Below, in pieces: positions 4,358 to 64,000 of a stretch of DNA of 64,000 nucleotides. The stretch comes from Eledone cirrhosa (Eukaryota). The stretch spans positions 392,584,001 to 392,648,000 of the forward strand of contig OZ024740.1 in the NCBI GenBank assembly GCA_964016885.1, in the 5' to 3' direction. The position numbers and the translations under genes are program-made. The notes below the pieces were generated by a model. The model did not search any database. It was not told the origin of the DNA and saw only the letters and a program-made list of their open reading frames with translations. The number at the start of each line of letters is the position of its first letter. The stretch's first letter is position 1.

Positions 4358-5981
4358 CATCATAATCATCATCATCATCATTTAACGTCCATCTTCCATG
4401 CTAGGGTTAGACGGTTTTGTTCCATTTGATGCGGGAATTGTTGGGAGACCATGTCTTGCTCGCACGGAAGCATCTTTGGCAGGTTTTTTTTACAGCTGGA
4501 TGCTCTTCCAACCACATATACAGTGTGGACTGGGAGCCTTTTCACCATGTCTCCTACACGGCCACCTTACAGTGTGACTGTTGTGTCATCGACACAGTGG
4601 ATGGAACAGGAGAGGGAGGATGGGGTAGGGTATGGGGGTGGGGGTGTACATTGAGTTAAGAGGTGCCTACTGACTGTAGGTTTGTATGCAATGGTAGTCG
4701 GGTCTCCTGTACCAAAGGTCTCGATCCAGTGTCATTGTCTTAGAGAAGTGTAGGTAGGCAAGGTCAGTTTTTATCACCTCGTCCCAGGTTTTTCTTGGTC
4801 TACCCACTGCGCAGCTTCCAACAATTTTCATTGCCCTGCACTTTTTTATACAGCTGTCATCCTTCATACGCATCACATGTCCATACCAACGCAATCTCCT
4901 CTCCAGAACACAACATTTGATATCTCTTACGCTTAGTCTCCCTCTTAGTTCGTTTATGCTTTGCCTTTCACACACATTACTATTATACATCCATTGGAGC
5001 ATGCAAGCTTCATTTCTTTCTAATCTACGCAGGTCTTCAGCACACAATGCCCAAGTCTCACTACCATGTAAGATCGCTGTTTGTATACGTGCATCATACA
5101 ATCTGCCTTTCATTTTTAGAGAAAAACCCCTTATGGTCAACAGTGGTATTAGCTCTCTTAACTTTTTCCATCCTGTTCTAACTCTGGCTACTACACTTTC
5201 AGAGCACCCTCCTCCATTGCTGATTTTGTCACCCAGGTAACGGAAGGTGTCTATTATTTGTATAGAACCATCTGGGCAGTTGAAGGAGATATTATCCAGT
5301 GGGTCCTTGCTACTTACTGCACCTGAGCATCGGCCACATATAAAATCTACATTCTTAGATAGCGTACCTCTGATCCCACTACATCTTTTATGTACCCATA
5401 GTTTGCATTTGGGACATAGAATGGAATTTCTACCTACTCCTTTCCTACATACTGAGCATGGCCATTTCCCAGAGGGCAGCTGTGCCCTATTCTCCTTTCT
5501 ACATACTAGAACCTTAGTCTTAGACAAGTTGACTCTAAGGCCTTTTGATTCAAGGCCATGCTTCCATGTTTGGAACTTCCTCTCTAGTTTAGCCATGGAT
5601 TCAGCTATTAGAGTTATATCATCTGCATATAGAAGTTCCCATGGGCAGCCAGTCTTAAACCTCTCTGTTATCGCCTGTAGGATAATAATAAACAGGAGGA
5701 GGCTAAGAACAGAGCCCTGGTGAACCCCTACTATTACACTAAATTCATCACTATAGTCTTCGTTAATTCTAACCTTGCTGACTGTTTCTTTATACATGGC
5801 TTGTATAGCTCTCACAAGCCATTCTTCCACTCCTAGTTTTCTAATAGCCCACCAGATTAAGGTGCGTGGGACTCTGTCAAAGGCCTTCTCCAGGTCAACA
5901 AAATCTAAGTAGAGGTGTTTACTGTTAGCTAGGTACTTCTCCTATAATTGCTGTACAAGGAAAAGAGCATCTGTGGTACTT
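4358..5981 (-). mobile_element. 5'-truncated RTE-clade LINE (RT with PHD-like insert, 3' UTR and (GAT)n tail), antisense in a CEP162 intron
   Basis: ORF 4667-5830 has GVHQGSVLS, LLYADD, FRYLG, RRLRWYGHVMRM and GRPRKTW; FVDLEKAFDRVPR lies upstream; ends ggacgttaaatgatgatgatg, typical of RTE. Confidence 0.95.
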
Positions 5982-6179
5982 TTACAAATGCAAACAAAAT
6001 GGATTTTTATATGGGAAGAAATAGTACTGCACCTGTAATTCCCCTAACCATAATGAGTTTCTGATTGAATATGAATTTTTTTTAAATTGTAAAAAAACTT
6101 TTTTTTTTTGCCGATTTTGAGACTGATGTTCAAAACAAAAAAAAAATCTGAAGAGGAATGTTATCATTTTTTCTAATTC

Positions 6180-11790: not shown

Positions 11791-13240
11791 CAAGTGGCCA
11801 GGAGAGAAGCTGGGAGACAAGAGACAAGTGTACCTTGCAAGAAGGGAAGCAGAGGATAGAAAGTTCAAGCATGTTCTCCAACGCGAGGACCAAAAACGTT
11901 CAGGATTGCAAGACAATGTGTCAAGGAAAACCATGATATTGTCGGGGAGAAGTGTGCCTGTAATAATGAGGGTGTACTTGCCCTCACTGATACTGATAGG
12001 AAGGTAGTTTGGAAGTGTCACTACGAGAGACTACTAAATGAGAAGAATAAATGGGAAAAAGATAGTCTGCCCCAAATTGATCCAATAGAGGGACCAGCAG
12101 TGCAAGTTAAAGGTAGTATAATAAGTAAGGCAATCAAAGATATGGAGACAGGCAAGGCGGCTGGGCCTTCGGAGATAGTTGCTGAGATGTTGAAAGCATC
12201 TGGAATGATGGGACATACAGTGGTCACTCGTATAGTAAACCAAGTAATGCAGAATGGGGTCATACCAAAGGACTGGCATAGCAGCATCATCGTTAACTGC
12301 TACAAGGGTAAAGGAGATGCTCTAGATAGGGGAAACTATAGAGGCATTAAGTTAGTTGACCAGGTCATGAAGGTCACAGAAAAAGTAATAGCACAACTAA
12401 TCAGAGAGCGAATTGATCTAGATGAAATGCAGTTTGGGTTTGTGTCAGGTAAAAGTACCACAGATGCTCTTTTCCTTGTACGACAACTACAGAAGTACCT
12501 AGCTAAAAGTAAACCCCTCTACTTAGCTTTTGTTGACTTGGAGAAAGCCTTTGACAGAGTCCCCCGCTCCATTATCTGGTGGATCCTTAGAAAGCTAGGA
12601 GTAGATGAATGGCTTGTGAGAGTTATACAAGATATGTATAAAGAAACAGTCAGCAAAGTTAGAATTAACAATGAATATAGTGAAGAATTAGCATAAAAGT
12701 CGGTGTTCATCAAGGCTCTGTCCTTAGCCCCCTCCTGTTTATTATTGCCCTTCAGGCTATAACAGAGGAGTTTAAGACTGGCTGTCCATGGGAACTTCTA
12801 TATGCAGATGATCTAATACTCATAGCTGAATCTATGTCTGAACTAGAGAAGAAATCCCAAACATGGAAGCATGGCCTTGAATCAAAAGGCCTTAAAGTTA
12901 ACTTGTCTAAGACTGAAGTTCTAGTATGTAGAAAGGAAAATAGGGCACAAGTGCCCTCTGGGAAATGGCCATGCTCAGTATGTAGGAAAAGAGTAGGCAG
13001 ATATTCCCTTTTATGTCCCAAATGCAAAGTATGGGTGCATAAAAGATGTAGTGGGATCACAGGTAAGCTAACTAAGAATATAGATTTTATATGTGGCCGG
13101 TGCTCTGGTGCAATAAGTAGCAGCAAGTGCCCATAGGATCATAGCTCCTTCCATTGCCCAGATGGTTCTATAGAAATAGTGGACACCTTCCGTTACCTGG
13201 GTGACAAAATCAGCAGTGGTGGAGGGTGCTCTGAAAGTAC
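11791..13240 (+). mobile_element. RTE LINE fragment (RT domain plus PHD-like finger, with stops and frameshifts)
   Basis: KAAGPSEI, YKGKGD, NYRGIKL, QFGF, FVDLEKAFDRVPR, YADD, WPCSVC...WVHKRC; closely related to 4358-5981; 5' end abuts (TA)n, 3' end cut by a PLE fragment. Confidence 0.93.
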
Positions 13241-13478
13241 AGCTAGATCCGAACTAAAGCGCCAGTATTCGAGCGGCGGGAATCTAGCTGAACTCTTCCA
13301 GGGGTATAATCCATATATGGGCCAACAGTCTAAGCAAATAAATCTTAAAAGTTGTCTTGTTTTTTTGTTTGTATTCTTTTGTTTTGTTTTTCTCTGGGAG
13401 TGGTCAGTGATCGGGGGGGGGGGGATACCTGTGTTCAAATGGCAGTGTTGAATTATCTATTTTTATTACACTCATTGC
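13241..13478 (-). mobile_element. Penelope-like pseudo-LTR fragment carrying the 5' half of a hammerhead
   Basis: Colinear with 61520-61752 (agctagatccgaact...aatctagcXgaact...ggtcagtgatcggggg...caaatggc). Confidence 0.75.
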
Positions 13479-13479
13479 G

Positions 13480-14470
13480 ATCTTTGACTCTTAGTAAAAG
13501 ACAGCCGAAAAATTTGAAGCAATTACTAACAAAAGCAAAGTTTGACCTTAACAACAAAGACCAATCATTCACTGTATATAAATGCAATGATAGTCGATGC
13601 GGCACATGTCAATCCATACACAACGGTCAATATATGAACACAAAAACTGGGAAAATATTCCCAAATGTAAATATGAACTGCAAAAGCAGAAATCTAATTT
13701 ACTGCATTAAATGCCCGAATTGTGAAGAACTATATGTCGGTCAAACTGGAAATGCACTATCGGAACGTGCACGGGTGCACCGACAGAAAATCAGAGACCC
13801 AAATGTCCGTCAGATACCCCTGAGTAACCATCTATCAACATGTGGTCAGAGAATATTTATATTTCCATTCTATAAATTACACAGCCCAAGAGAAAATCAA
13901 AGAAAAGAATGTTATTGATAAATTCCAACCCAAGCTAAATGAACAATAATAATGGGGTATTACTCCTACTATGACTATGACTACGACCACTAACAACAAC
14001 AACAACAACAATAATAATAATAAAAGTGATGTTGATAGTGATGATTACTAGAAAATGCTATTTTCATCATTTCTAAAAATAGCAAAACAATTGATGCTTT
14101 GGATAGCGTCAAATAGTAGTCGTTAGACATGCTCAACCAACCGTGACGCCTAAACCAATCAGCTTTAGTAATCCAGTGAAACTACACACCGATTGGTCGA
14201 AATACAGTTTGCAGAAATTAGCATTCTGTAGCCGATTTTCACTGTATATAAGGCACAACATTTACCCATCTCATTACAGTTGAAAATTGCAAACTTGACT
14301 GTCACCACAGAATATGAACCTGAAGATTGAGAAAGCATGAAAGTACTTGTTCAATTAACACTTAACATTTAATATTCTACCATACTATTTCATTCTAATA
14401 CCATTATAAATTTTAAAGGATTGTAAATAAAACGAGTAAATCAGACAAAGTTGGAATTCCTTTTATTAAT
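13480..14470 (+). mobile_element. Penelope-like element 3' end (Neptune-like): Cys-rich linker, GIY-YIG endonuclease and pseudo-LTR
   Basis: RQPKNLKQLL, CNDSRCGTC, CKSRNLIYCIKCPNCEELYVGQTG...ERARVH; downstream region has a minimal hammerhead and ends in (TA)n. Confidence 0.85.
14315..14353 (+). ncRNA. Minimal type I hammerhead ribozyme (PLE pLTR)
   Basis: TGAAC-CTGAAGA-t TG agaaag CA t-GAA AGTACT T-GTTCA: 5-bp stem I, palindromic stem III, CUU triplet. Confidence 0.7.
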
Positions 14471-14564
14471 ATATATATATGTATGTGTGCGCGCGTGCGT
14501 GTGTATGTATGTGTGTATGTATATGTATGTGTATATATGTGTGTGTATATATATGTATACATAC

Positions 14565-14920
14565 ATGGAGGCACATGGCTTAGTGGTTAGAGCATTGGCC
14601 TTGCAATCGAAAGGTTGTGAGTTCAATTCTCAGACCGGGTGATGTGTTGTTTCCTTGAGGAAGACACTTTATTTCACATTGTTCCAGTTCACTCAGCTGT
14701 AGAAATGAGATGATGGGGACTGGGGTCCCTATCATTCCACGTGGAGGTGCCACTGTAAAGTGTACGTGAAGGCGCCACGGGAAAAAAGCACCCATCACTC
14801 ACTGTAAATGAAGTTGGTGTTAGGAAGGGTATCCAGCTGTAGAAATCAAGCCACAGTCAGTTCCCGTCCCACCCTTGCAAGCAGGGAAAAGCGGACGTAA
14901 AATGAAATGATGATGATGAT
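14565..14920 (+). mobile_element. tRNA-derived CORE-like SINE with RTE-derived 3' tail
   Basis: A-box tggcttagtgg, B-box gagttcaattc, core tttccttgaggaagacactttatttcacattgttccagttcactcagctg, tail ggacgtaaaatgaaatgatgatgat shared with the RTE 3' ends. Confidence 0.75.
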
Positions 14921-14958
14921 ATATATATTTAACGAAGGGTATAAGTAAATAATGGTTA

Positions 14959-15469
14959 TTTAGGATATTAGTATCAGTGTATATATATATATTATCAAGA
15001 ATGACAATAAATGCAGGTGAGTGTTGTGACAAGGTTTTACTTCACAGAAGTCAAATAAATTAATATAAATAATTTGTTACCACATGTAGATGTTCAGTTG
15101 GTCCAACTCCCAGACTGGAGTGTGTAGAGAAGAACAGAAACCATCTCTTGGAGCTGTTCAACTATTTCTTTAGGCAGCCAGTATTCTTCTTCTTGCGGGC
15201 GAAGGAAGTGAGACAGGAGTCATCTCTTGACAAGGACTCAGGTGGTCTTGTTGTCCCTTCGAAGTTCAGGATGCGAGAGAGGCTTATGCCTTGCCAGTCC
15301 TCAAATATATAGTCCCCAGGGGGACGCAACTCCATTTAGCACATGAATCTGCCAATGGGGGTCGCGCCTGTCGCAAAGAGACGTAACTCCTATACGTGCT
15401 GAGTTACAACCGTCGTAAAGGGACGCAACTCACATACGTGCTGAGTCACAGCCGTAAGGGGCCGCTACA
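14959..15469 (-). mobile_element. Solo LTR of the Gypsy family at 40081-44084
   Basis: Colinear with 40081-40596 and 43548-44084; 4-bp TSD GTTA at 14955-14958 and 15470-15473. Confidence 0.92.
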
Positions 15470-16286
15470 GTTATTTGTTAAAATGATTATAACAGTTGTT
15501 AGATGAAATAACAAGTATTATAAAACAGTTACCAAGAGTTGCGAAGGTTGACAATGTGATTTTGTTGTTGATGTGAAAACAGCGAACGACCAGATAAAAT
15601 TTGTTGGTGGTTAAAGTTTGTTGCAGTCCCTCGTAGTAGTTCTCGTCCTGAGTCTATGACCATAGTTAGAGAAAGAGAGAGAGTAATGGTTTGTATACCT
15701 CTGAATGGTCTGTAGTAGTTCTCGTCGTTAGTCTATTCTCTCTGTATTTCTGTAGATCACTGGGGTCTGTTGATAGCAGTGAATCTTTACATAGCTTGTT
15801 GTATTTCGTGGTGCTCCGATGTCTCTATGTTCAAGGTGGGAAAATATCGGCTTTATATACCTGTCGCTTTCTGCCTCCAACCTTTAGGGGATAGCCCACG
15901 CATGAACCTGTTTACACCAAAAGGGTGATGACCTAGAATTTGGTGTCACCCAAGGTTCAAGGCGCGGGCAGATTTCACTACATTAGTTCCCTACCCAGAT
16001 CGATGCAGGAGCAGCGATCGATAATAAAAGGGGTAACGAAACCTGATTCCTAGAAGCATGTCCCAAAACACACAAATGTGGGTACTGCGCCTGCATTTCG
16101 AGTGTAGAGAAATTTGGAGAGAGAAAAAAAAAATATCGTATAACTGTGTATGCATGTGTGTGTGTAACATTTAGAAGGAACTGTAAACATACAAAGTTGT
16201 GATCATGTATTTCGAACTGTTGTGCATGGATGGACGTTGGGGTTACGGTATCGGATTACGATATGACAACACAGAGGACTATTTCT

Positions 16287-16618
16287 CTCGATGTATCATC
16301 ATACGTAAGATTCTCTTCCAGTGAGTCGAGGTTTATGCTATGACATGAGTGTGTGCAATTTTGAGTTGCGTGCTCAGTGAGTCGAGCGAGTAGTAACCGT
16401 GGGTTCATTATCATGTGTTAAATAGCTGTTGCCGAACTTCAACCAGTTGAATCTCGATGTATTATCACACGTAAGATTCTCTTCCAGTGAGTCGAGGTTT
16501 ATGCTATGATATGAGTGTGTGCAATTTTGAGTTGCGTGCTCAGTGAGTCGAGCGAGTAGTAACCGTGGGTTCATTATCATGTGTTTAATAGCTGTTGCCG
16601 TACCATGACCAGTTGAAA
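16287..16618. repeat. Tandem duplication (2 x ~166 bp) inside the non-autonomous LTR element
   Basis: ctcgatgtatXatcaXacgtaagattctcttccagtgag...accagttgaa repeated at 16287 and 16453. Confidence 0.9.
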
Positions 16619-17667
16619 AGTGATCCCGCAGAGACCCAACCGAATCCAGAATATACCATAGACAAAAAAAAAACATGTTGGTGTGGCAAAGAAAATGATG
16701 TGTGTTTGATGCAAAACGTGTTATTCATACAGGCATATAATACAGTAAAACGAATAAAAAAATAAAAAAATAACATTCATATATTACATGTAAAAAAAAA
16801 AATTTATATAATTGTTCTTTACAAAAAGTTCAGTTCTCTCTTCTTTATGTGAATGTTTCCTTGCTAGGAAGCTAGTAGTATTGTTTGTTGTTGTTGTTGC
16901 TGGAGATTACGAAGCAAGCGGTGAAGTGTTTGGTAAGAGAAAGTTGTTGATATTGGCAAAAGAAGCCATGATCATATCAAAAGGCTGCGTCCGGTTTCCT
17001 TTTTTTTTTTTTGTATATACCACTTCGTTTTTGTTTTTAATTTTTTTTTAAACGTCAGGAAACCAATTTAACGAAGGGTATAAGTAAGTAATGGTTATTT
17101 GTTAAAATGATTATAACAGTTGTTAGATGAAATAACAAGTATAATAAAACAGTTACCAAGAGTTGCGAAGGTTAACAATGTTATTTTGTTGTTGATGTGA
17201 AAACAGCGAACGACCAGATAAAATTTGTTGGTGGTTAAAGTTTGTTGCAGTCCCTCGTAGTAGTTCTCGTCCTGAGTCTATGACCATAGTTAGAGAAAGA
17301 GAGAGAGTAATGGTTTGTATACCTCTGAATGGTCTGTAGTAGTTCTCGTCGTTAGTCTATTCTCTCTGTATTTCTGTAGATCACTGGGGTCTGTTGATAG
17401 CGGTGAATCTTTACATAGCTTGTTGTATGTCGTGGTGCTCCGATGTCTCTATGTTCAAGGTGGGAAAATATCGGCCTTATATACCTGTCGCTTTCTGCCT
17501 CCCACCTTTAGGGGATAGCCCACGCATGAACCTGTTCACACCAAAAGGGTGATGACCTAGAATTTGACCTTTAGGTGTCACCCAAGGTTCAAGGCGCGGA
17601 CAGATTTCACTACACACATATATATATATATGTGGTTGTCTATACATATATGTGTGTGCATTTATAT

Positions 17668-17966
<299 letters not shown>

Positions 17967-18605
17967 TTATATATATATATATATATATGTATACCCACAA
18001 GTATACTGTATTCTTTTTGAAATATGTATGGTGGAGGGTATTCTAAGGCTGTGTCCTACAAATGTTACGCTAAATATCCCTATGATTTTATTTATTTTTT
18101 TTTAAAATTCCAGCAAAACATTATTTATGATGAATGCCGCATACAGTATAATTGCGGCCGTGTACCTGACCGATGTAGACTAAGGCCTCTAGGGGCAATG
18201 AAGACGTCGAAGTGATGCCAGCCGTTCAAGATTACAGCCCCTCTCCCACCACAGTAGTAATTCTGATACATGAAGAAATTTTGATTGACAGGTGGAGAAC
18301 GAGAAGAAACAAGAAGTGGGCAACCGTGATTGGCTAGAAATACCGGTGACGTGTACAATTCTTGACCACTCATAGAATGACAACAACAGGATTTAAATCA
18401 ACAAACGAAGGATTTCGGTGTTAAAGGACAATAGGAAAATCTGCTTCGTAGAATCGAGAGGACCGCACGATTTCAGAGTCAGGTTTGATCACCATATCGA
18501 TCGTGCCTTGAGCTGGTCGCCCGAGAAACAATTGTAATATGGCCAATAAATTCCTTTCGTCGCAACACTGATTTTATTTTTTCTGTGATATATATATATA
18601 TATAT

Positions 18606-19580
18606 AAAATAAACTAAAATAAATAAGTCAAATATTTAAAATTTGGCTTCGTTTATTACTGTTATATATATTTCGGTGACAGCCATCTTTGGCTGTGACC
18701 TCTTCAGGCAGTCCGCATTAGTGTGGTAGAGACGAGTACACATGCTGTTGAGGTGTTTAACTTTGTCAATACTCTGATATGCCCAGTTCCTGGTTGGGTT
18801 GTTATTTCTATGAGGAACTGGAATCATATGAATTTAAACAAACGAATTTCAGCGTCAAAGGACATCCTCTCCTTCCATTGGTCAGTTGTGAGAACACCCC
18901 TCAGTCAAAAGTCTATAGAAATTCGTTCTGAGGCGAGGCAATCTGTAGTGGTTGTTTTTGTTATTGTTAAGTTAAGTACATCTGACCTCTACCCTTATGT
19001 TGGAAGTGGTGTTGGTGCTGGGGTCAGACTTAAGTCCTGTTGCTGTTGATTTTAGAAGGATCTCTGTGTGTGTGTTGGCATCTACCCTGCCACCATTTCT
19101 CGTAGTGGTGGTCGTGGTGGTGGGGGTGTGGGGTGTGCCAAGCATATGAAGAAATAAAAGGCAATAAGATGAAGAAAATAAAAAATAAAAAATAAATAAT
19201 AAATAATAAAAAAATAATAGAATGAAATGAAAAGGTAAAAGACTAAAAAATACGAATAAAATAAAATAAAGAAAAGTAGAGTAAAATAAAATGAAATAAA
19301 ATAAGATAGAGTAAAATAAAATAATATAAGATAATATAAGCAAATAAGTAAACAAAAAAAAAAGATAAAATGGTAGAAGGAATAAGATGATAAAAGAATA
19401 AAATAAGATAATCAAATAAAATGTGTGTGATATAACCAATCTCAAAGTTAGAAAGATTTGGAAGATCCTCTCCTCCCATTGGTCAGTTGTGAGAGCATTC
19501 CTCAGTCAAAAGTCTATAGAAATTCTTTCTGAGGTGAGGCGACCTGTAGTGTTTGTTTTTGCTTTGTTAAGTACACCTTA
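18606..19580 (-). mobile_element. Probable PLE pseudo-LTR remnant with partial tandem duplication (18865-18983 ~ 19467-19578)
   Basis: Hammerhead near its 3' end, (TA)n flank, ~115-bp direct repeat cctctccXXccattggtcagttgtgaga...gttaagtaca. Confidence 0.5.
18658..18712 (-). ncRNA. Type I hammerhead ribozyme with long stem II and palindromic stem III
   Basis: Minus strand ACTGc-CTGAAGA-GGT c ACAGCCA aaga TGGCTGT c ACC-GAAA TATATA TA-aCAGT. Confidence 0.75.
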
Positions 19581-19648
19581 CCTCTATTATTTTACATTAC
19601 TCCGGAGTAACCAAACCAACCTGCGCACTTCGTATAGGAAAATGTATG

Positions 19649-19744
19649 ACCCCGACGGCAGAGCTCAAGCCGTTTCGACGGCTATTTCTGGACTAAATTA
19701 GAATTTTTAGCGTGGTAAATAAATAGCCGAACTTTTCAAGGGGT
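19649..19744 (-). ncRNA. Type I hammerhead ribozyme, U3-A8 core variant (3' pLTR)
   Basis: ACCCC-TTGAAAA-G tt CGGCTATTT...AAATAGCCG t C-GAAA-CGGC ttgagctct GCCG-TC|GGGGT. Confidence 0.8.
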
Positions 19745-22700
19745 AATTCCTTATATGGGAAGATTGTAGTTGTTAAGAGGATTGGTCAAAATTTCTTGTA
19801 AACACAATTAAGTCTATCCTGGCAGTGAGTGGGAGGTGGGGGTGGCTGAACTTGCCTGTAGAACAATGAGGGAGTGGGAGGAGCAGGTCAAGCGTTGAAA
19901 CTGAATTCTATACAGCAAATTCTAAGGATTGTGTATGAAACTAGGCTAGAGGAAGTAGGCGATAAAGGATTATGGAGAAAATAGAGAAGGGACGTTATAG
20001 AATAGGTAAATCCATTGGGATTAGAAGATAATAAATAAATGAGAAAAAAAAAAAAAAATTGGATAGTAAGAAGTGATAAAAAAACTATAGAGTCTAAAAC
20101 AGCTGCTATATTTAGTCGGTGTTGCGTTTTCGGCCAATTCTATAGAATAGGTTAATAAGTTGAGAATAGAAGATGCTAAATAAATAAATAAAAATTTGAA
20201 ATTATAGAATTGGGTAATAAAAAGTAATACAAAATCTCTGGGGTCTAAAACAGCTGCTATAATTAGTTGGTATTGCGTTATCGGCCAATGCTATCTTTAA
20301 TTTACTGGGGTGGGGGTACTGATGCTACAAAGGCCCGATGGGCTGCCTCGGGGTAGGTAAAAGGGGAAAAGGGAAAAGGAAGAGGATAGGGAGTGGAAGG
20401 AAGTGATAGGAGGAGACAAAGGGAAGAAGAAAATAAAAAGGAAAAGAAAAGGGGGTACATCTACCAATGTTAGCTGGGGTTTTCCCTATCTTGTTCGGCA
20501 AGTGGGGAATAGGAGGATGTTTCAGCCATTGTCTACCCACCCGGTCATTAGGGGGTTTGAGGGCGAGGTAAGTCCTACGCAATCGGTGTTTGTATGCAGT
20601 TACCAGTTCGTCTTCTTTGTTTAGGAGTTGGTCCTTCGTAAACAACATTTGTAAGTGCATAAGTTACATGGAGGGTGTCCCCCCGTGTAGGAGTTAGCCC
20701 TGGACAGTAAGCTCCAAGTAAGATTGTATGTTATTATCTTGGAGGTCCCAGATGTGGCCTGAAAGTGTAGTGGCATGTCACCGGGCCGGGTTTCGGAACG
20801 TATGTCGGTGTTGGTAGAGCCGGGTCTTAAAGTCACAAGCGGTTAATCCTATATAAGATTTTTTGTCCGTCCTCCCGTTGCACTGGTAGATCACATTACG
20901 TTCTCGGCATCTGTTGTTGAGGGGGCACGTAGATATATCAGGGCAGTAACACCTCCTGGTCGGCTCTCCACTAATGTCTATGTTGTTTCTTCCATAGGGG
21001 TTGAGTTTTTTGTTGTTTGACTAGGCGATGTTTTGTGCGAAGTTGGGTGTGGTGCTGTAGGAGAGTTTGATAGTGTTTTTGTTGATTATGTTGTGGTATC
21101 GGTGTTGTGGTGGGAAGTGTTTTTTGAGGAGCCTAAAGAAGATTTTCCCGATAGGTGTTGCCACCTCGGCATTGTGGGGAGGGTTGAACCACGTTACGTG
21201 GCGTGAGCGGCGGCGTCGCCTGCTGGTTCCGCTAAGGGAAGCTGGATAAAAGAATATGTCCTCCCGGAAGCCGCTTCGCTTGAGGGCCTGGTTGTAATGA
21301 GGCGCATGTTCATCGAATATCTTCTCATTAGCGGACAAACGAGATATGCGGAGGGAAATGTTTTTAACCAGGTTATTGGTGATGTTTCTAGGATGGTTAG
21401 AGCGGCGGTGGATGTAGTGCAGGTTGTCGTTTGGTTTCCGTTTTTAGGGTGATTTTAAATCCCCAGTCCCGGAAGAAGCTGATTAATTGTTTACGGACCC
21501 GGTCTGTACTACTGGGGTTGTACCCTTTGAGGGTAAGGAGCCCATCGTCTCGGTACAATCCACCGCCGAATGCAGGAAACATTTCGGTGAGTTTATATAG
21601 TAGGAATAATCCTATAAGATCGGTCACCTCGGCCGAAACGGTCGCGCCCATACTGACGTCGAAGTGGGAGTCGGGAGCTCTCTTTATCCACTTGGAGTTG
21701 TCGAAAAGTAGGACTGTTCTCATGGCGTGGAGAATGATATTTCTTTCCTGGTCGGTGATGGGTGTGAGTGTTTTGACAAAGTTCAAAGCGGCCATAAGGA
21801 GCGGTAAGGTAATAGATGCATAGTAACTCTCTATGTCAAACTGGATGAATTTGGTGTCCTGTTTGTCCTAAATATTCCTGAACCATGAGATTACATCCTG
21901 GGTGCTGACCCATAGGCTAAGTCTCGTGTTTTGCTTAACTTTTGGTATTACGCGGTCTAGGATCTTTTTACTGATTCTTCCTATGTCCGACTTCGTCGGG
22001 TTTATAAGCCTGATGGATGGTTTGCGGTCGAAGTCGGATTTGTGGTCCTTCAGTGTGAAGTAGGAAGTCCGTGGACCGAGGGGGTTCCGAGGCTGGAGGT
22101 AATTTGTTGTCCATCTAGATTTATGTCCTCGATAATTGAATGGTTAGCCTTTTTGTAGGTGGAGTTCAGGCTGCTCCTGATCAGTGTGTGGTATCTGTCA
22201 GGGTTGACGAAATAGAGGTTTCCAGTTTTGTCCGAATGCACCAGGATGTCGTTGGTGCTTTCATACTCCGTTATTTTGCTACGGAGTTGTTGTAGGAATC
22301 TGTTGTGTCTGGGTTTGAATTTATACCCTTGACCAGGTGGAAAAGGTGTTCTCGAAGGGCGAGAACATAGGGTTCGGTGGGCGAGATCTGTAGGTATTTA
22401 ATCCGAATCTCTCCTTGGTGTCGAAGTCCTGGTTGTCGCGGTATCTATCGTAGAGAAATGTTCTCCATCTTAGTCTTTTCGCAAACAGGTCGATTTTTTG
22501 CGTGAGCATCCGAAGGTAAAGTTTTCTCGGTGGAACCGGGATGTTCTTGGTAGAGAAGTCGATATTGTGTTTTCGCATAGTGGGTATGATGAAGAAACTG
22601 CAGCTGGGTGGAAAAGTCGGGATATGGCGTTGTAGGGTCAGAAAGTGCTCTACTACGGAGGTAGGAGCTAGATAACGAAGGAGTTGTAGTAAGGAACCAG

Positions 22701-22766
22701 ATGGACCATAACGCACCAGAGTACTCAATACTTAGGGTAGTAGAGTGGGTAATAGGAAAATGTATG

Positions 22767-22861
22767 ACCCCGACGGCAGAGCGCAAGCCGTTTCGACGGC
22801 TATTTCTGGAAAAATTAGAATTTTTAGCGTGGTAAATAAATAGCCGAACCTTTCAAGGGGT
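22767..22861 (-). ncRNA. Second copy of the U3-A8 hammerhead (5' pLTR) with an A9G core substitution
   Basis: Same fold as 19649-19744 but the core reads TTGAAAG. Confidence 0.7.
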
Positions 22862-23261
22862 AATTCCTTATATGGGAAGATTGTAGTTGTCAAGAGAATT
22901 GGTCAAAATTTCTTGTAAACACAATTAAGTCTATCATGGCAGTGGGTGAGAGGTGGGGGTGGCTGAACTTGCCTGTAGAACAAATTCTAAGGATATATAT
23001 ATATATATATTTTTATATATGTTTATGTGTATTTGGTGTATACGTTCGTATGTGTGCGGATACAGGTGTTGCGTGGGTTTTTGTATGTGTGCGCGTGTTT
23101 TTGTGTACGTTCCTGTATTTGCATACCCATGGCGGGTGTTTTTACGTATGCATGTGTATGTACGTATATGAATGCGTGCATGTATATTTTTAATTATTGT
23201 TTATTTCAATAACCTCTGTAATTTATTTACATTATTCTTAACTCTGAAGCGAAGAATCTTT

Positions 23262-23540
23262 CCACGACTTCAGTTATACCATAAACGTGGTTTTGTCTTT
23301 GCGTGTAATTGTTCCCCACGCTTCACATAATGACGTGTTATCTTCGTTTTTTTTTCGTTCATTGCCAGGGAACGTCTCCACGAACCACCTAATAGAATAT
23401 TAGCCTACGACTTCATTTATACCATCAACGTGATTTTGGCTTTGCGTGTAATTGTTCTCCACGCTCCAAATAATAACGTATTATCTTCGTTTTCTTCTCT
23501 TCTTTGCCAGGGAACGTATCCACGAACCAAAGTATCGTCT
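23262..23540. repeat. Degenerate tandem duplication (~145-bp period)
   Basis: acgacttca...tttgcgtgtaattgttcXccacgct...ttatcttcgttttt...gccagggaacgtXtccacgaacc occurs twice. Confidence 0.75.
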
Positions 23541-23765
23541 TCCTGTCTTCCTTCGGTTGCAACGTTTTTCGAAATATTTACTTCCCCGTTCACATTGCTT
23601 TTTTTAGTTTCAGAAGATCCCGTTAAGGGTGAAAGCAACGATTCTTTGCTTAAACTTTAATCTGTTATTTTAATAAATATTTGCTCTACGGTTCTTATAT
23701 ATTTGATATATATTTATATTTATCGAGCCCTCTTTGGATTTTAGTCTTCAAATTTATTATTATTA

Positions 23766-23818
<53 letters not shown>

Positions 23819-23899
23819 TAAGTCATGATAGGCAAACTGCAATATTATTATTAGTATATTTCTATCTAGCTAACTTGGTCATTTACAATACAAACATAA

Positions 23900-25660
23900 A
23901 TATGAGGATATTTGTGTTTATCAAATATATTGATTTGTGTTAACCTATATTCACGGCTCAGAAATACTCTTTCTTTCTTAGAGCTATTTCATTGTAAATT
24001 CCTCCTTAAATTCTCGCCAGCATTCCTTTAATCTCTCTCCTATATTATGGACTGTCTCCTATGTATGTCGTTGTCTTGCTTTTGCATCGTCCCTCTGTAC
24101 ACTTATCCTTAGACTACATTTCTAGTTCTACAGTTTATCTGTGGCCATATCTTACAGGCAATACAGTTTCTACCAGTACAGGATTTTATGGTAACTCCTG
24201 GTTATTCATTTTTTCTAAATCTCTTCTAAAACGATACGCTAGTTCGTCTCTAGGGGTAGCATCGATGAATATGACACTCTGGTATTTTGGGCTGTCATAT
24301 TATGAGTTGACCTTCCCTATCTTTTTCTTAGTCCTTTCTTTGGTATTCTTTGATTTGCTCCTGTATAGTGGACAAATCCCATTCATATCATTCTCCATAA
24401 TGGGTTTGAATTTAGCCATGGCTCCTTTATACACTTTGATCCTGCCTCTTTGGTTATAACCAGAGAACTGCATGTGGTGGATAAAGTGCTGTATGTGTCT
24501 CTTTAAATCTGTTGGATGGCACACGCGGTTCGCATTTTTCATCACCCTTACCAAGTTGGTTATCAAGATACTGAACTTTGCACTATTTTAGATAGCTCAG
24601 CTCCGGTGGATCAAGTACTGGGAAGCCATAGGTTTGGTAATATGTGAATGGAGGATTTGGGGTCTATCATTCCTAGTTTCCATCCAGAGTTCTGTGTTTA
24701 ACACAAGTAATCTATTTTTGGGGTGCTTAGTGGGGTGGTATACTGTTACCTTAATGCTCTAGTGGATGGATGCTCTCCATGGTGCTAGCTTCTAGTTCTC
24801 ATTTGTGGTTACTCTCTAGTGGGGTAGTTTTAACCACTATCTTAATAATCATCAAATAGCGAGAGTACATGGCTATAGCTATGGAGTTCTCAGCTAAGCG
24901 TTCTTTGAGTTTTCTGTCCCACCACACCATAAACAGATTGGCCACATCGCCAGCGACGCTGACGCCAATGGCCGCTCTTTTCTCTTAGGCATATGTTTAT
25001 TATTGAAATTAAACATAACCTTTTAGAGTAGTTTTAATACTCGCTCCCACTTCATGCGCGATCATTCTTCTCATCTGGTTGTGGTTTTCGGGGGTCCGTA
25101 TGGCTCTGATCCAACTGCTCCATCTTTCCAGTGGGGGGTCTTTTTGGCCATTGAGGTGATGGTGGGAGGTTTACCCCTTACAGGTCTACTGGGGCAGAAA
25201 CAGCTAAAGTTGTATTCATCTAGATATTCTCTATCACAGGTAAGTCTAAAGAGGCCCTGTTTCTCAGTGTCAACTCCTCGGAATTCCACATCGCTCCCGC
25301 TGATCATTTCCATTTATTTCTCCACAGCAAAATCAACGTCGATGGATGGATATAAGGATACTACATCCATGCTATTATGTAGTTTTTCAGGTCGTGAGTT
25401 TGGTTGCACTTGTTGATTTTTGCTGAGGAGATCCTCTGCGCTGTCACACACGTCTGGGAACATCTTGATTATGGAGCGTAAGATCATTGTGAGGAAGTTG
25501 CTGGTGATGTTTAGTCAGCAGACAAGTCTTGTTGGTAATGATGCCACAGGATCGGTGGATATTGTATGGTCCTTGCGGAGTCCATACAGCACTGGAATGT
25601 TATTATTCGAAGCTTGGAAATTGTTGGCCGGGTGCTTTCTTTGTCCTAGGATATCAGACT
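23900..25660 (-). mobile_element. Decayed Penelope-like element of a third lineage (RT plus C-terminal GIY-YIG)
   Basis: Minus-strand peptides GVAGDVANLFMVWWDRKL, YSRY, KPMASQYLIH, MQFSGY, PLYRSK, SVIFIDATP, CIACK...NCRTRNVV*...TYIGDS. Confidence 0.75.
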
Positions 25661-25749
25661 ACATCATTATGAATATATATATAACCTAGCTAGTATATAT
25701 ACTATTATAGTTAAGGCATAGGAGGAAATATAAACAAATTTTATACTAG

Positions 25750-27250
25750 TTAATGCTGAGCATGTGTTGAAAGAATATTCTCAATAATGAACTGTTTCAA
25801 AACAATAAACACTAATTGTTTAAAATCAGAGGCTGTAAATGGTATCAGTAAATTCTCTGTGATTAAAATGATACCTCCACCATTAACCATCAAGATCACT
25901 TATCCTGTTTTCAGGCACGGTGGATATGAACTGAACAGCAAAAAGAATGGTAGACATGAAAATATACTAAGACCTGTAGTGTAGCAATAATTTCATATTC
26001 CCCAAAAGGAAACATCTTTCTTATATGAATATAGATAATCAATATATTAATTAAATGTGTTCCATGGCAAACATTTTTACTATTTTTATAGTTCTTTGCT
26101 TGGATCAATTTTTGATAATATAATGTTCACTAATTCATCATTTATCTCTAATAAAATATCTAAAGAGATTGTTTATATTTTGATGATATCCTTAAATACA
26201 GAAGATTCAACTTGAAATACTCGGATTGAAATTCAGCATTCAGTAAATTCCCTTTTTTGAAACGCTTACTAAAAGAAAAGTAGCATCAACTTGTTCTAAA
26301 GTCACTACAATAACTGTTTTTCAAGAAAGTCACATTGTTTGTGTAAGTTTAGATATTTTATAGTAAATTGACAAACCACCTCTTAAATGAATGTGAAGTC
26401 CGATTGTCATTTGTAAGAATGGTAATGGTGTTAATTCTTTTCAAGAAAGTTTCTATAACATGACTAGTGCAAAGAACGAAAGAATAACAAACACATACTA
26501 TAAAAACAGAAGACATATCCTCTTTCAATAGTTTCTGGAACTACTTTTTATACCAAACATGGAAGAACAATTATCGCTAGCGAATACAATAATATTTTCT
26601 AAAGAAATATTTCTTTCCTGCCAAGAACCTATCTATTTCCAATAACTACAGTAGAAGAGCATCTACATTATACTTATTCAATTCAAACTACAGCTAAAAT
26701 TTGGGCAACTAAAATATCAGCACTTTCGTCAATTATAATAGAAAACTTTGATGTCTTGCAGATATTCATTACCACTATTTTTTCTTAAAGTGCAATTCCA
26801 TCCTGAAAGCCATACAAAGGTGTTGTTCTTTTTCATTGATATTAGTTTTTTAGTGATCTTACTGCTCGGAAATGTTCTTTTACATACTGTCAAATGAGAA
26901 TCAATAGTGAAAAAGGGAATGTTTTGTTCAGTAAACTAGCTAGCAGTTCCTTTTTAGCTATTTGTTCATTCACCATAAATTGAATAATATTAACACTAGA
27001 TTTAGCCGTATTGAAACGTTTCTTTCACAGAAGTTTTGTGTTTCCTCGGCAAGGATTTATTTATATTTCTCAATAGCATTGCAGCATTTACAGCAATAGC
27101 TTAGTTTCTTTATGATTTTTATCTTGTTGAAGCCAATCCTTATATTCAGGATCTGCAGCTAGTTTTCTTTGATTGTGCATACCATCTCCTCTCCTCCATT
27201 TTTACTGGGTGTTTGCATTTCATCTCTCATTATCATTGAAGTCAAATAAT
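25750..27250 (-). mobile_element. Decayed hAT-family DNA transposase
   Basis: Minus-strand peptides DPEYKDWL, SIIIDESADILVAQILAVV, FASDNCSSMFG, SFALVM, LEQVDA correspond to hAT BED and catalytic blocks; many stops. Confidence 0.7.
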
Positions 27251-51090: not shown

Positions 51091-51709
51091 TAATAAATAA
51101 AAGAGAAAGAAGCGATGTAGAATAGAAACATTATGAAATATTTTCGTTGCCTGGCGATTTTCTTTTCGAAGTAATGACGAAGAGAAGGATGAAATATTTC
51201 TGCCTTTCGAAAAAAAGGAGACTTTCGGTGTATTCACCAATTGTGCCTTTATAATTATAAAGGCACAATTGGTCAGTGTGTAGGATGATATGGTTTCTAT
51301 TAACCAGGACAGGGTATATAAGAATGTATGCCTAGTATTCGAAAGTGAGGACGAGTTGAGATAGCAGGTCAAATTTGTGTGCCATATACTGGCCTATAAG
51401 GTTGCGCCACAATATATGGATCAGGCTATTGATTCAGCTATTGACTCTTGGCTCACCATAACATTTGCGGTATCAGACGGGTATGTTATGAGGGCTAAGA
51501 ATACAAGAAATGGGATCTGCATGAACATGTAAATTCTAATGGTCCTTGTAAACCCCAAAGCCATTTCAAACGTGGCTACGTCGTTGTGTTCTTGATTAAA
51601 ATATCTTTATTTATCGATTTTGCTAAACATTTACTTAGGGCTAACAAAATAAAGTATCAATCAACATTAATCTATATTAATCAACTGTGCCCTCTATACT
51701 CCTCTTGTA

Positions 51710-52840
51710 AACTATTAGATCAGGTACCAACCTTAGAAATTCTCATTAGACCTTGGTTCAGTTTACGAAACCATCATTAGACATTACTTCAAAGTCAGAA
51801 ATTTCCATTAGACATGGTGCTAGGCTAAGAAATCATTTTTAGACTTTGTACAATATAGGAAATATCCTCTTTAGACAGTGTCAATCTAAAAATATCATCA
51901 TTAGACCAAGTTTTTTAAGTCCCAGTTTTAGAAATCGCCAATTGACCAATGTAAGAAGCCATCATTAGATCAATGTGAGAAATTACCATTAGGGCATGTG
52001 GTAATGTAAAGAATTGCCATTAGACCACATGGTAATGTAAGACACCGCCATTAGACCACGTGGTAATGTAAGACACCGCCATTAGATATTGTGCCAATGT
52101 AAGAAACCATCCTGTGTTAATGTAAGAAACGTCATCGTTAGACCATGTGGAAATATAAGAAATATCATCATTCGGTCATGTTGCAATGTAAATAATTGAT
52201 ATTAGACCATGTGGCAATATAAGGAAACGTCATTAGACCATGTGGCAATGTATGGAACTGTCTTTAGACCATGCTGTAATGTAAGAAATTGGCATTAGAC
52301 CTTGTGGCAATGTATGGAACTGTCATTAGACCATGTTGTAATGTAAGGAATTGGTATTAGACCGTGTGGTAATATAAGAAATATCGTCATTTTACCATGT
52401 GGTAATGTAAGGAAACGTCATTTGATCATGTGTTAATGTAAGAAATTGGTATTAGACTATGCATCACTGTAAATAAACCATCATTAGACCATGCAGCACT
52501 GTAAACAAACCATCATTAGACCATGTAACACTGTAAACAAACCATCATTAGACCATGCAGCACTGTAAAGAAACCATCATTAGACCATGTAGTACTGTAA
52601 ACAAACCATCATTAGACCATGCAGCACTGTAAATAAACCATCATTAGACCATGTAGCACTGTAAAGAAACCATCATTAGACCATGTAGTACTGTAAAGAA
52701 AACATCATTAGACCATGTGGTACAGTAAAGAAACTATCATTAGACTATGTGACACTGTAAAGAAACCATCATTAGACCATGTGGTAATGCAAAGAACCGT
52801 TGTTAGACCTTGTCTAAGTTAAAGAAACCATTATTAAACA
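51710..52840. repeat. Degenerate 31-32-bp minisatellite (~35 units)
   Basis: Unit catcattagaccatgtagcactgtaaagaaac; period 31 near 52021-52052 and 32 near 52479-52543. Confidence 0.9.
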
Positions 52841-57600: not shown

Positions 57601-57637
<37 letters not shown>

Positions 57638-57639
57638 AC

Positions 57640-57845
57640 AAAGAAGGTGTGGTAAGATACCAGGTGGACCATAACGTACCAAAGTACTCGATACTTAGGG
57701 TAGTAGAGTGGGTAATAGGAAAAGAGTCAGGACCCCGACGACTAAGATCCGGCCATTTCGAGAGCTAGATCCGAACGGATCTACTAGCTTTCGGATCTAG
57801 CTGTCGATCGGCCTGATCTCAGCCGTCGGGGTCTTTATTCTTTTC
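57640..57845 (-). mobile_element. Short PLE pLTR derivative with fold-back inversion inside the hammerhead
   Basis: 57660-57724 matches 22698-22760; arms 57719-57775 and 57790-57845 are inverted; flanked by (TA)n. Confidence 0.8.
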
Positions 57846-58003
57846 ATATATATATATATATGAAAAACAGGGTGAAAAAGAATTAGGAAGAAAAATATAT
57901 TTTTTCCTTTTTATTTTTTTCTCTCGTTTTACTTTGTGTGAAGTGTTAAGGTATTAGTTGATTTATTTATTAATTAACAATGGCATTTATTTATATATTT
58001 AAT

Positions 58004-60026: not shown

Positions 60027-60318
<292 letters not shown>

Positions 60319-60336
60319 ATATATGCGTATACACAA

Positions 60337-61475: not shown

Positions 61476-61760
61476 AAAAGATTCAGGATCCCCGACGGCT
61501 GAGCTTCGGCCGTTTCGACAGCTAGATCCGAACTGAATCGCCGGTATTCGAACGGCGGGAATCTAGCAGAACTTATCAAGGGATACAGTCCATATATGTA
61601 TGGACATACAGTCAAAGTAAAAAGAAATCTTAAAAGTTATTGTTTTTTATTTTTCTCAGGACTGGTCAGTGATCGGGGGCTGGGGTATCTTAGGTCAAAT
61701 GGCTGGTATAGCCCTGCTACATATCGTGTATTTTATTTATTACATTCTTAGCGGCGAGGG
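61476..61760 (-). mobile_element. PLE pseudo-LTR (sister subfamily) ending in (TA)n
   Basis: Colinear with 13241-13478 and contains a complete hammerhead. Confidence 0.75.
61488..61584 (-). ncRNA. Type I hammerhead ribozyme, U3-A8 core, extended stem II
   Basis: ATCCC-TTGATAA-G ttc t GCTAGATTC c CGCCG ttcgaatac CGGCG attcagttc GGATCTAGC t gt C-GAAA-CGGC cgaagctca GCCG-TC|GGGGAT. Confidence 0.8.
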
Positions 61761-62561: not shown

Positions 62562-62793
62562 TAATAAAATCTATGAAATAAAAACAAAGAACAAGTTCCT
62601 TATATCAAAAAATTCATCATTTTACGATCGTTTCTGGGATGTATATGTGTGTTGGTATGTATATCATGTTTAAGATCTATGTAAAAATATTACAAATTAT
62701 CAGAGAAAATATATATACCTTCACATATACATGCCGTCCTCAGAAATGATGAGATGTGTTTATTGAAAAAAACAAAGAATTGATATAAAGAGT

Positions 62794-64000
62794 TTGTATG
62801 ATTTCACCACATATACGAACCCACCACACAACTCCTTTCTTGAAAACTTCGAGAAAGACCTATTTGACTTAATCAAACACCTCAGATTTAAGAAATATAA
62901 ATCTAATTTTCAAAAGGATCTCGACTCTACCCTATTGGAACTAATAAAATCTAGCAAAGTCCACGTCCACTCTGACAAAACAGGAAATCTATACCACATG
63001 GATATTGATAATTATAATGAGTTCATTTATAAGGAACTCAGGAAAAATTATAAAAAAACAAATAATGCGGCTCTTACCAATATCAAAAACAAAACATACA
63101 ACATAGTAAATAAACTCAATATTGAAGACAGAACTGAACCTTTGGCACTGAAAAAACCACATTTTAACCCGAAAGATCACAAATCTAACTTCAACTCTAA
63201 TCCTTCTATAAGACTTATATGGCCTTCCAAGTCAGACATTGGCATTATTAGTAAAAACAAATTGGATAGAATTATCCCACAATTAAGAAAACACGTTAAC
63301 TTACCACTCTGTGAAAACACATCCCAAGTAATTAATTGGTTTTCTAATATTAAAAATAAATCCTCTGCTTCATTTCTACAATTCGATATAGATGCTTATT
63401 ATTCCTCTATATCACCCATACTCCTGAACAAAGCCTTGATATTTGCCAAAAATAGATCAGACTTAACTATGGATGACATTAATATTATCACGCACGCTAG
63501 ACAAACACTACTGGAATTTCAGAAGGAGTATTGGACCAGAAATACATATAATAATCTCTTCGACATAACTATGGGCTCTAGTGATTCTGCCCAAATAACC
63601 GATCTTATGGGCCTCTTTCTTCTATTTAACATTAATTCATCTTTCCCCCACCTTAAAGGTGGTTTATATCGTGATGACTGTCTTCTTCTATCCATTAATC
63701 TTAGCCTATCAGAAATTGAAAGAAATAAAAAACTTAGAACTTTCCTCAAAGACTATTATAATCTCACTATTACATTTGAAAACACCAGTAAAATAGTCAA
63801 TTTCCTAGATATAACTATGGACCTATCTACGGGTATCTACCAACCTTACCATAAACCTAACCAAAACTTGCATTACATACACTCACAATCCAATAACCCT
63901 AGATCTATCCTTAAAACCTAGCATATAATATCTCACTCAGGATCTCTAACCTTTCATCAAATCAGGATGTATTCGATAAAAACGCGCCCTTTTATAACGA
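62794..64000 (+). mobile_element. Penelope-like element RT region (same lineage as 19635-22994), running off the window
   Basis: HSDKTGNLY, KDHKSNF, SKSDIGIISK, QFDIDAYYSSI, FDITMGSSDSAQI, GLYRDD, NFLDITMDL, YHKPN; continues after a frameshift as LRISNLSSNQDVFDKNAPFYN. Confidence 0.92.

Follow-up and report, generated by a model that had tools for sequence, protein, structure and literature searches.

The minus-strand motif described here is a type I hammerhead fold in a pseudo-LTR of an abundant Hydra-clade Penelope-like retrotransposon (PLE), and positions 3 and 8 of its core are U and A. We propose, at a probability of roughly 0.7, that in vivo this U3-A8 hammerhead cleaves a minority of the transcripts after GUC, while the element spreads without needing the cut.

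The motif was found in a 64,000-nt stretch of DNA, referred to as the window. The initial annotation had placed a type I hammerhead with a loop III palindrome, GAGCUC, in a Penelope pseudo-LTR, and every element that it named was present on the minus strand at 19649-19744 (Table 1). The architecture is that of type I, with a three-way junction at which stem I is open and stems II and III are closed. The minimum-energy fold of 19640-19755 formed all three stems at −26.3 kcal/mol, a modest energy (z −1.73; 11 of 200 shuffles were equally good). With up to 200 nt of flank, pair probabilities were 0.78-0.99 for the three stems and only about 0.1 for G10.1-C11.1. The window's top score in the structural descriptor, 19, was given to this site and to its twin in the 5' pseudo-LTR, which the initial annotation had overlooked, and paired-core matches scoring 19 were found in 0 of 10 shuffled windows. 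Exact core matches numbered 6,756 genome-wide (2,556 and 4,200 from two disjoint patterns) and 0 in the reversed controls; on these counts, and since shuffled windows lack such a score, a chance fold was rejected. A distal extension of stem I, absent from the initial annotation, is also predicted; an internal loop would lie within the extended stem, and the 3' arm of the extension would terminate at the element's +20 insertion end. No partner motif for a tertiary contact of stem I with loop II was recognized. As had been anticipated, the U3-A8 core escapes searches for CUGAnGA, and it escapes Rfam as well: in the scan of 14000-26000, none of the 37 matches with E ≤ 10 was to a hammerhead family. 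Searches with a fixed core and Rfam miss thousands of hammerheads in this one genome.

Table 1. Coordinates of the hammerhead, its host element and related copies in the window
Feature	Position	Strand	Remarks
Type I hammerhead fold, 3' pseudo-LTR copy	19649..19744	-	stems I, II and III; U3-A8 core
Core U3 U4 G5 A6 A7 A8 A9 (UUGAAAA)	19733..19739	-	
Stem I	ACCCC 19744-19740 / GGGGU 19653-19649	-	
Stem II	G10.1 19732, C11.1 19677; CGGCUAUUU 19729-19721 / AAAUAGCCG 19687-19679	-	33-nt loop
GAAA strand after stem II	19676-19673	-	
Stem III, ACGGC/GCCGU		-	5 bp; 9-nt loop UUGAGCUCU
Loop III	19660..19668	-	palindrome GAGCUC 19666-19661; intermolecular stem III between two copies predicted
Predicted scissile bond C17/G1.1 after GUC	19653..19654	-	genomic mini-insertions elsewhere start at the equivalent G
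Distal stem I extension, predicted	19634..19752	-	AAGGAA 19752-19747 with UUCCU 19640-19636, across internal loop
3' pseudo-LTR	19634..19866	-	96% identical to 5' pseudo-LTR over 227 nt
Broken ORF, RT + C-terminal GIY-YIG, Hydra clade	20535..22578	-	
+1 to +100 after cut	22672..22771	-	holds both insertion ends (+20, ~+100) defining the PLE 'tail'
5' pseudo-LTR	22752..22983	-	second hammerhead copy 22767-22861, with A9G and loop III GCGCUC
Second family-B short insertion, head-to-head	57632..57850	.	
Family-B short insertion, head-to-head	60122..60330	.	ribozyme 3' half + tail
Older family-B hammerhead copy	61489..61584	-	UUGAUAA core; compensatory stem II changes

The pseudo-LTR setting was likewise borne out, as paired pseudo-LTRs flank a broken ORF for a reverse transcriptase (RT) and GIY-YIG. 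Aligned with an intact ORF from the genome, it falls into four segments that alternate in frame and are 79-89% identical, and the Pfam matches of its fragments to RVT_1 and GIY-YIG are weak and below the cut-off. The window copy of the element is dead because its ORF is broken. Young intact copies were found elsewhere in the 3.0-Gb genome, for instance in L126-L127, where four units of 3,531 nt, with ORFs of 717 aa, stand in tandem and five ribozymes have an identical core. The intact L126 element has a single ORF, RT then C-terminal GIY-YIG, of 717 aa from the first Met (YRDDG 348, YIG 606), and the hammerhead sits about 190 nt upstream of the first AUG. Assignment to the Hydra clade was made from protein motifs, with Hydra reference proteins compared by eye: the published clade description gives RWK, DKT, a CxCX5C linker and flanking CxxC and CxH motifs, and the L126 protein has RWR 37, DKT 117, CNCPDRSIC 572, CNLC 670 and CKH 698. 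The Naiad clade was rejected on the domain order, the endonuclease being C-terminal. The insertion traits of the Hydra clade, namely (TA)n targets, pseudo-LTRs and tandem and inverted copies, were all observed. Two clade traits were not: the unit is 3.1-3.5 kb rather than <3 kb, because the 3' UTR is long, and the hammerhead is U3-A8 rather than canonical.

Several other loci in and beside the window were noted. A second, distant Hydra-like PLE ORF, broken and about 45% identical, occupies 62773-64000 (+) and continues into the adjoining locus L422; the descriptor found no hammerhead directly behind this ORF. Just outside the window, at about 5950-6030 (+) of L422, a canonical CUGAUGA hammerhead with a GUCC/GGAC stem II and a palindromic ACCAUGGU stem III was recognized by eye, and from this candidate it appears that canonical-core hammerhead families coexist with the U3-A8 family. 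A lone canonical-core candidate (CUGAUGA, descriptor score 15) lies at 2130-2222 (−) with stems I GUCUA/UAGAC, II UGCAGC/GCUGUA with a long loop, and III AUGG/CCAU; a second copy was not found among the genomic loci compared. At 13239-13353 (−), a truncated family-B ribozyme (5' half, mutated core) is located within another retroelement-like ORF region. The window also contains an inverted repeat pair at 14400-14640 and 17690-17840, probably a SINE, with a weak tRNA match (RF00005, 28.1 bits), and minisatellite arrays at 51700-52830 with periods of 31 and 32 nt.

The major data bearing on cleavage were the insertion junctions. Insertions have their 3' ends 20-22 nt past the cut or at about +100, and the loose ends observed in the four sequencing-read contig sets at L126 1286 and 1366 correspond to these +20 and ~+100 ends. 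Loose ends at +1 were not seen among the 16 of 263 rows listed in the contig sets, where depth is not copy number; sets X5 and X6, with only 3-4 pieces, were left out. Most pieces are short and start upstream of the cut, as 9 of the 11 pieces collected from 40 evenly spaced 10-kb stretches (400 kb) start at −26 to −41 and none at +1. Scaled up, 11 pieces per 400 kb corresponds to roughly 80,000 genome-wide. The cut as the 5' end of most copies was rejected, since most 5' junctions fall at −26 to −47. The commonest short-insertion starts in this range are in or just before the 3' strand of stem II, often head-to-head.

Junctions at the cut itself were sought with a pattern in which three bases foreign to the ribozyme come directly before positions +1 to +29. 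This gave 710 matches, and the same design gave 32 at −3 and 109 at +5, the two boundaries against which the excess at +1 was measured. Measured against the 109 matches at +5, the +1 boundary is in excess by about 3-fold and not 10-fold. Among the first 100 of the 710 matches, 51 were true +1 junctions and 16 were slips or deletions (67 were inspected, and the other 33, all TCG rows, were counted as extra-G slips without inspection), which extrapolates to about 360 true +1 junctions. At +5, where 10 of the 109 matches were viewed, about 48 of 100 listed rows were preceded, by eye, by CCC or ACC; such rows can come from microhomology with the inverted partner, and +5 is not clean as a control, nor does it add support.

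The mini-insertions starting at +1 are 20-100 nt long, and their junctions exclude C17. Their inverted partners were particularly informative: 20 of 35 also end at +1/+2, while 7 run past and 8 stop short, and in 13 of the 20 double-ended cases one base has been added, T in 7 and A in 6. At −3, with all 32 matches viewed, 0 of 23 inverted partners end at the site (p = 2e-6 versus 20/35). For R2 elements, it has been reported that 5' junctions track the ribozyme cut and that the RT adds untemplated bases at run-off (PMC3774820). With R2 as the precedent, the shared stop at +1 and the one added base point to run-off of the reverse transcriptase where the RNA template had been cut. It is likely, judging from these junctions, that hundreds of +1 mini-insertions record RNA self-cutting in living cells, and they suggest that cleavage happens in the germ line. 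The cut predicted in the initial annotation is located where it had been placed and gains indirect in vivo support from the +1 excess.

The state of the 3-8 pair was then compared across copies. U3-A8 is present in about 5,177 of the 6,756 core matches and C3·A8 in 1,508 (487 + 1,021), and the 71 G8 matches were divided by eye into 10 C3-G8 and 61 U3·G8, using a slightly different pattern. Only about 10 C3-G8 copies were observed versus about 16 expected if positions 3 and 8 were independent (p = 0.11). Covariation of the pair within the genome was rejected on this basis, and the change from C3-G8 to U3-A8 is seen only against relatives in the clade. The proposal that copies would covary was upheld for stem II, where three pairs show two-sided change (40 copies, few independent events), and failed within the genome for the 3-8 pair; stems I and III gave no two-sided changes but only G-U wobbles. 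A U3·G8 wobble subfamily of about 26 copies, L062 included, branches in the ribozyme tree at a position intermediate to families B and A and possibly represents an intermediate state.

Conservation was assessed in 200 distinct full copies (L001-L175 and the window), many of them chosen by pattern rather than sampled at random. Between families B and A, none of the 14 core positions has changed, compared with 6 of 36 in the stems and 39 of 80 in loop II and the flanks, and the fixation of the core against the divergence of loop II and flanks is significant (p = 3e-4). In loop III, 2-3 of 9 positions differ, and GAGCUC is kept in both families. The column majority at U4 G5 A6, A9, G12 A13 A14, A15.1-U16.1 and H17 is unchanged in all seven subfamily groups, the exception being a tie in a 2-copy group, and all four bases occur among the subfamilies at position 7. 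For the CUGAGAA subfamily, an alternative register (CUGA-GA without N7) found no support; N7 is A in some C3 copies too.

The history of the pair was deduced from an ORF tree (last 1,100 nt, 72 copies) labelled by the linked downstream ribozyme. The tree is a ladder that leads from U3-A8 copies with the longest end branches, the window included, through a C3·A8 grade and to U3-A8 again, which is the state of the near-identical young copies at the top. Two changes at the 3-8 pair are required, and a single C3 clade was rejected (p-AU 4e-14) in an AU test run after the tree was seen on 71 rows (27 versus 44, one deleted-core row being dropped). The tree has no outgroup, and its direction was taken from the end-branch lengths and from family B being U3-A8; read in this direction, it shows that the active lineage apparently went from U3-A8 to C3·A8 and back to U3-A8. 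A smaller tree from the ORF 5' end (21 copies) agrees, save for one U3 copy inside the C3 grade. Selection on the pair would have been weak enough for a long amplification of C3·A8 before U3 returned. A conceivable rescue of the C3·A8 mismatch is A-to-I editing. In the available part of a saturation mutagenesis study (PMC9901934), single 3-8 changes were low, and among the doubles only the G-C swap rescued activity, U3-A8 being low. Because the 3-8 variants were low in that study, the ribozyme was probably impaired while the element spread, which agrees with the data for PAc (Poseidon, Anolis; Frangieh et al. 2024, PMC11167929). The literature on C3U/G8A kinetics yielded nothing usable, and papers on the kinetics of the 3-8 pair may already describe similar variants.

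The +1 junctions were also sorted by a tag 6-13 nt past the cut that marks C3·A8 subfamilies (of 54 full copies bearing such tags, 45 have C3). The C3-type tag was found in 0 of 13 strict double run-offs. It is significantly more frequent among full copies (22%; p = 0.04), among slips (13 of 39; p = 0.02) and among controls (19 of 32; p = 2e-4). As it was carried by 3 of 20 looser double-ended cases with longer inserts included, not different from 22%, and by 12 of 50 of all +1 junctions, the dependence of the +1 run-off on the 3-8 pair is suggestive only. That U3-A8 leaves cut-site run-offs and the C3·A8 grade does not, the ribozyme being active but dispensable, is a tentative reading to which we give nearly even odds. 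If true, the switching off and on of a ribozyme is readable from one assembly.

In the proposed mechanism, the element's protein would start reverse transcription at +20 or +100 and copy toward the RNA 5' end. On uncut RNA (tandem read-through) or re-joined RNA, the reverse transcriptase would pass the ribozyme and produce the usual copies, and on cut RNA it would run off at +1, often with one untemplated base added, to give the mini-insertions, often as head-to-head pairs. The U3-A8 pair derives from the C3-G8 pair of the clade and is probably slower.

As to how cutting occurs, it is quite possible, if somewhat short of an even chance, that a free monomer does not suffice and that activity calls for either dimer formation via the palindromic stem III or chaperoning by the protein of the element. 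Cutting may have this need because stems II and III, which both carry CGGC/GCCG, are predicted in several subfamilies to exchange their pairing strands and so to form an inactive structure. Against competing folds, the stem probabilities of the hammerhead were 0-0.76 in copies that are young, C3·A8 or family B. The predicted intermolecular stem III is far more stable than the hairpin (−27.1 versus −6.6 kcal/mol for the window copy; −27 to −31 versus about −7 overall), and its palindrome is the one kept in families A and B. Animal PLE hammerheads are reported to act as dimers (PMC4209133, PMC6765202), and the PAc hammerhead to cut only with protein (PMC11167929). Against such a need, the 5-bp stem III and 9-nt loop of the window copy fold as a monomer with a probability of 0.78-0.98.

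Routine cleavage was also considered, in which two ribozymes excise a unit-length RNA whose re-joined circle is the normal template, as proposed in PMC4209133. This would explain the tandem arrays, such as the one in L126-L127, and the +1 mini-insertions would be failed, un-joined intermediates; reverse transcription starting only 20-100 nt past the cut fits as well, and copies reading across the cut are compatible with a circle because re-joining restores C17-G1.1. We nevertheless regard it as unlikely, given that C3·A8 mismatch lineages amplified through many successive steps, that read-through from tandem loci accounts for the same copies and that, in the available account of PAc, hammerhead mutants left insertion in vitro unaffected (PMC11167929).

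It is quite improbable that the fold has little or no catalytic activity and persists because it binds a protein or acts as a structural signal, with the +1 pile-up due to RT pausing (stem III, G run) or to transcription start: the 1,508 C3·A8 copies, the U3·G8 subfamily, the low U3-A8 activity in the one saturation mutagenesis, the matches at +5 and a structure that shapes most 5' junctions speak for it, but the remaining catalytic positions do not vary among subfamilies whose loops II have diverged, the junctions exclude C17, the two partners share their stopping base and an additional A or T, and C3-type tags are missing from the strict cases even though the stems do not differ. For transcription start at +1, the cap is expected, after work on L1, to leave G rather than A or T at the junction.

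Cutting of a minority of transcripts by the U3-A8 hammerhead, probably dispensable for spread, is the reading that we retain. The role of hammerheads in endonuclease-bearing PLEs has been described as unclear (PMC8557442), and the available part of one biochemical study, on another PLE, reports neither a requirement for cleavage nor RNA reads ending at the cut (Frangieh et al., PMC11167929). What is new here is the junction record of cleavage together with a natural mismatch-and-reversion series. Since the genome offers natural 3-8 alleles (U-A, C·A and U·G), intact copies of young age and subfamilies in a dated series, the cleavage question is testable by junction counts as well as in the laboratory, and the same junction count is applicable to any PLE family. 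Our literature searches did not find the window element family described, and papers on dimeric PLE hammerheads may already hold similar variants; background on hammerheads and PLEs is given in PMC6765202, PMC3884650 and a preprint (bioRxiv 10.64898/2026.07.22.740005).

The hammerhead is a new variant among known PLE hammerheads and not a new ribozyme family. The suggestion of a possibly undescribed family does not stand, as U3-A8 was reported in 2014 for PLE hammerheads of Schistosoma mansoni, with about 1,300 matches (PMC4209133), and in 2011 for other natural hammerheads (PMC3088659). Nor does stem III mark a new family, since Hydra-clade hammerheads normally have one of 3-4 bp, with loops of 1-3 nt (PMC8557442, File S2). 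Like the one described here, the Hydra-clade PLE hammerheads (Craig et al. 2021, PMC8557442) are type I, on the sense strand and in the 3' region, with a real stem III; some share a 7-11 bp stem II beginning G10.1-C11.1, and the clade is the same by protein motifs. They differ in having CUGANGA in all Hydra-clade rows of File S2 and a short loop II, whereas U3-A8, a 5-bp stem III with a 9-nt loop and a 33-nt loop II are found here; TCGAAACGGC, the 3' motif of the window element family, has 0 occurrences in that supplement. Among 77 metagenomic relatives (~40% protein identity), 53 descriptor matches were obtained in 44 loci (1.8 per round in shuffled controls), 49 of them C3-G8 and 0 U3-A8. 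As these relatives are mostly C3-G8, and the Hydra-clade hammerheads of File S2 have CUGANGA cores and short stems III, the U3-A8 pair, the 5-bp stem III with its 9-nt loop and the 33-nt loop II were deduced to be derived in the window family. One metagenomic Hydra-clade relative, L219, has a U3·G8 core on the antisense strand at (−) 112.

The closest core is that of the S. mansoni Cercyon PLEs (Cervera and de la Pena 2014, PMC4209133), which have the same UUGAAAA with U3-A8 (supplement row UUGAAAAA) and, by the same source, a pseudo-LTR location, thousands of copies, a long stem II and a palindromic helix III region. In the part of that report available, Cercyon hammerheads are minimal, without stem III, and belong to a different PLE family; because of this difference in family, the U3-A8 change here is probably independent of Cercyon's. 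PAc differs, in the available text of its report (PMC11167929), in its C3-G8 pair, a tail of 30-40 nt (here about 80 nt) and the absence of ends at the cut site, and resembles the present element in having two RT start sites past the ribozyme that define the tail, copies that cross the cut site and AT-rich DNA as target. The R2 ribozyme is of another class, HDV-like, and its cut is the 5' end of full-length copies, unlike the minor mini-insertion class here; in both systems, as far as the R2 source extends (PMC3774820), the cut can be read from 5' junctions in the genome, and these bear untemplated bases.
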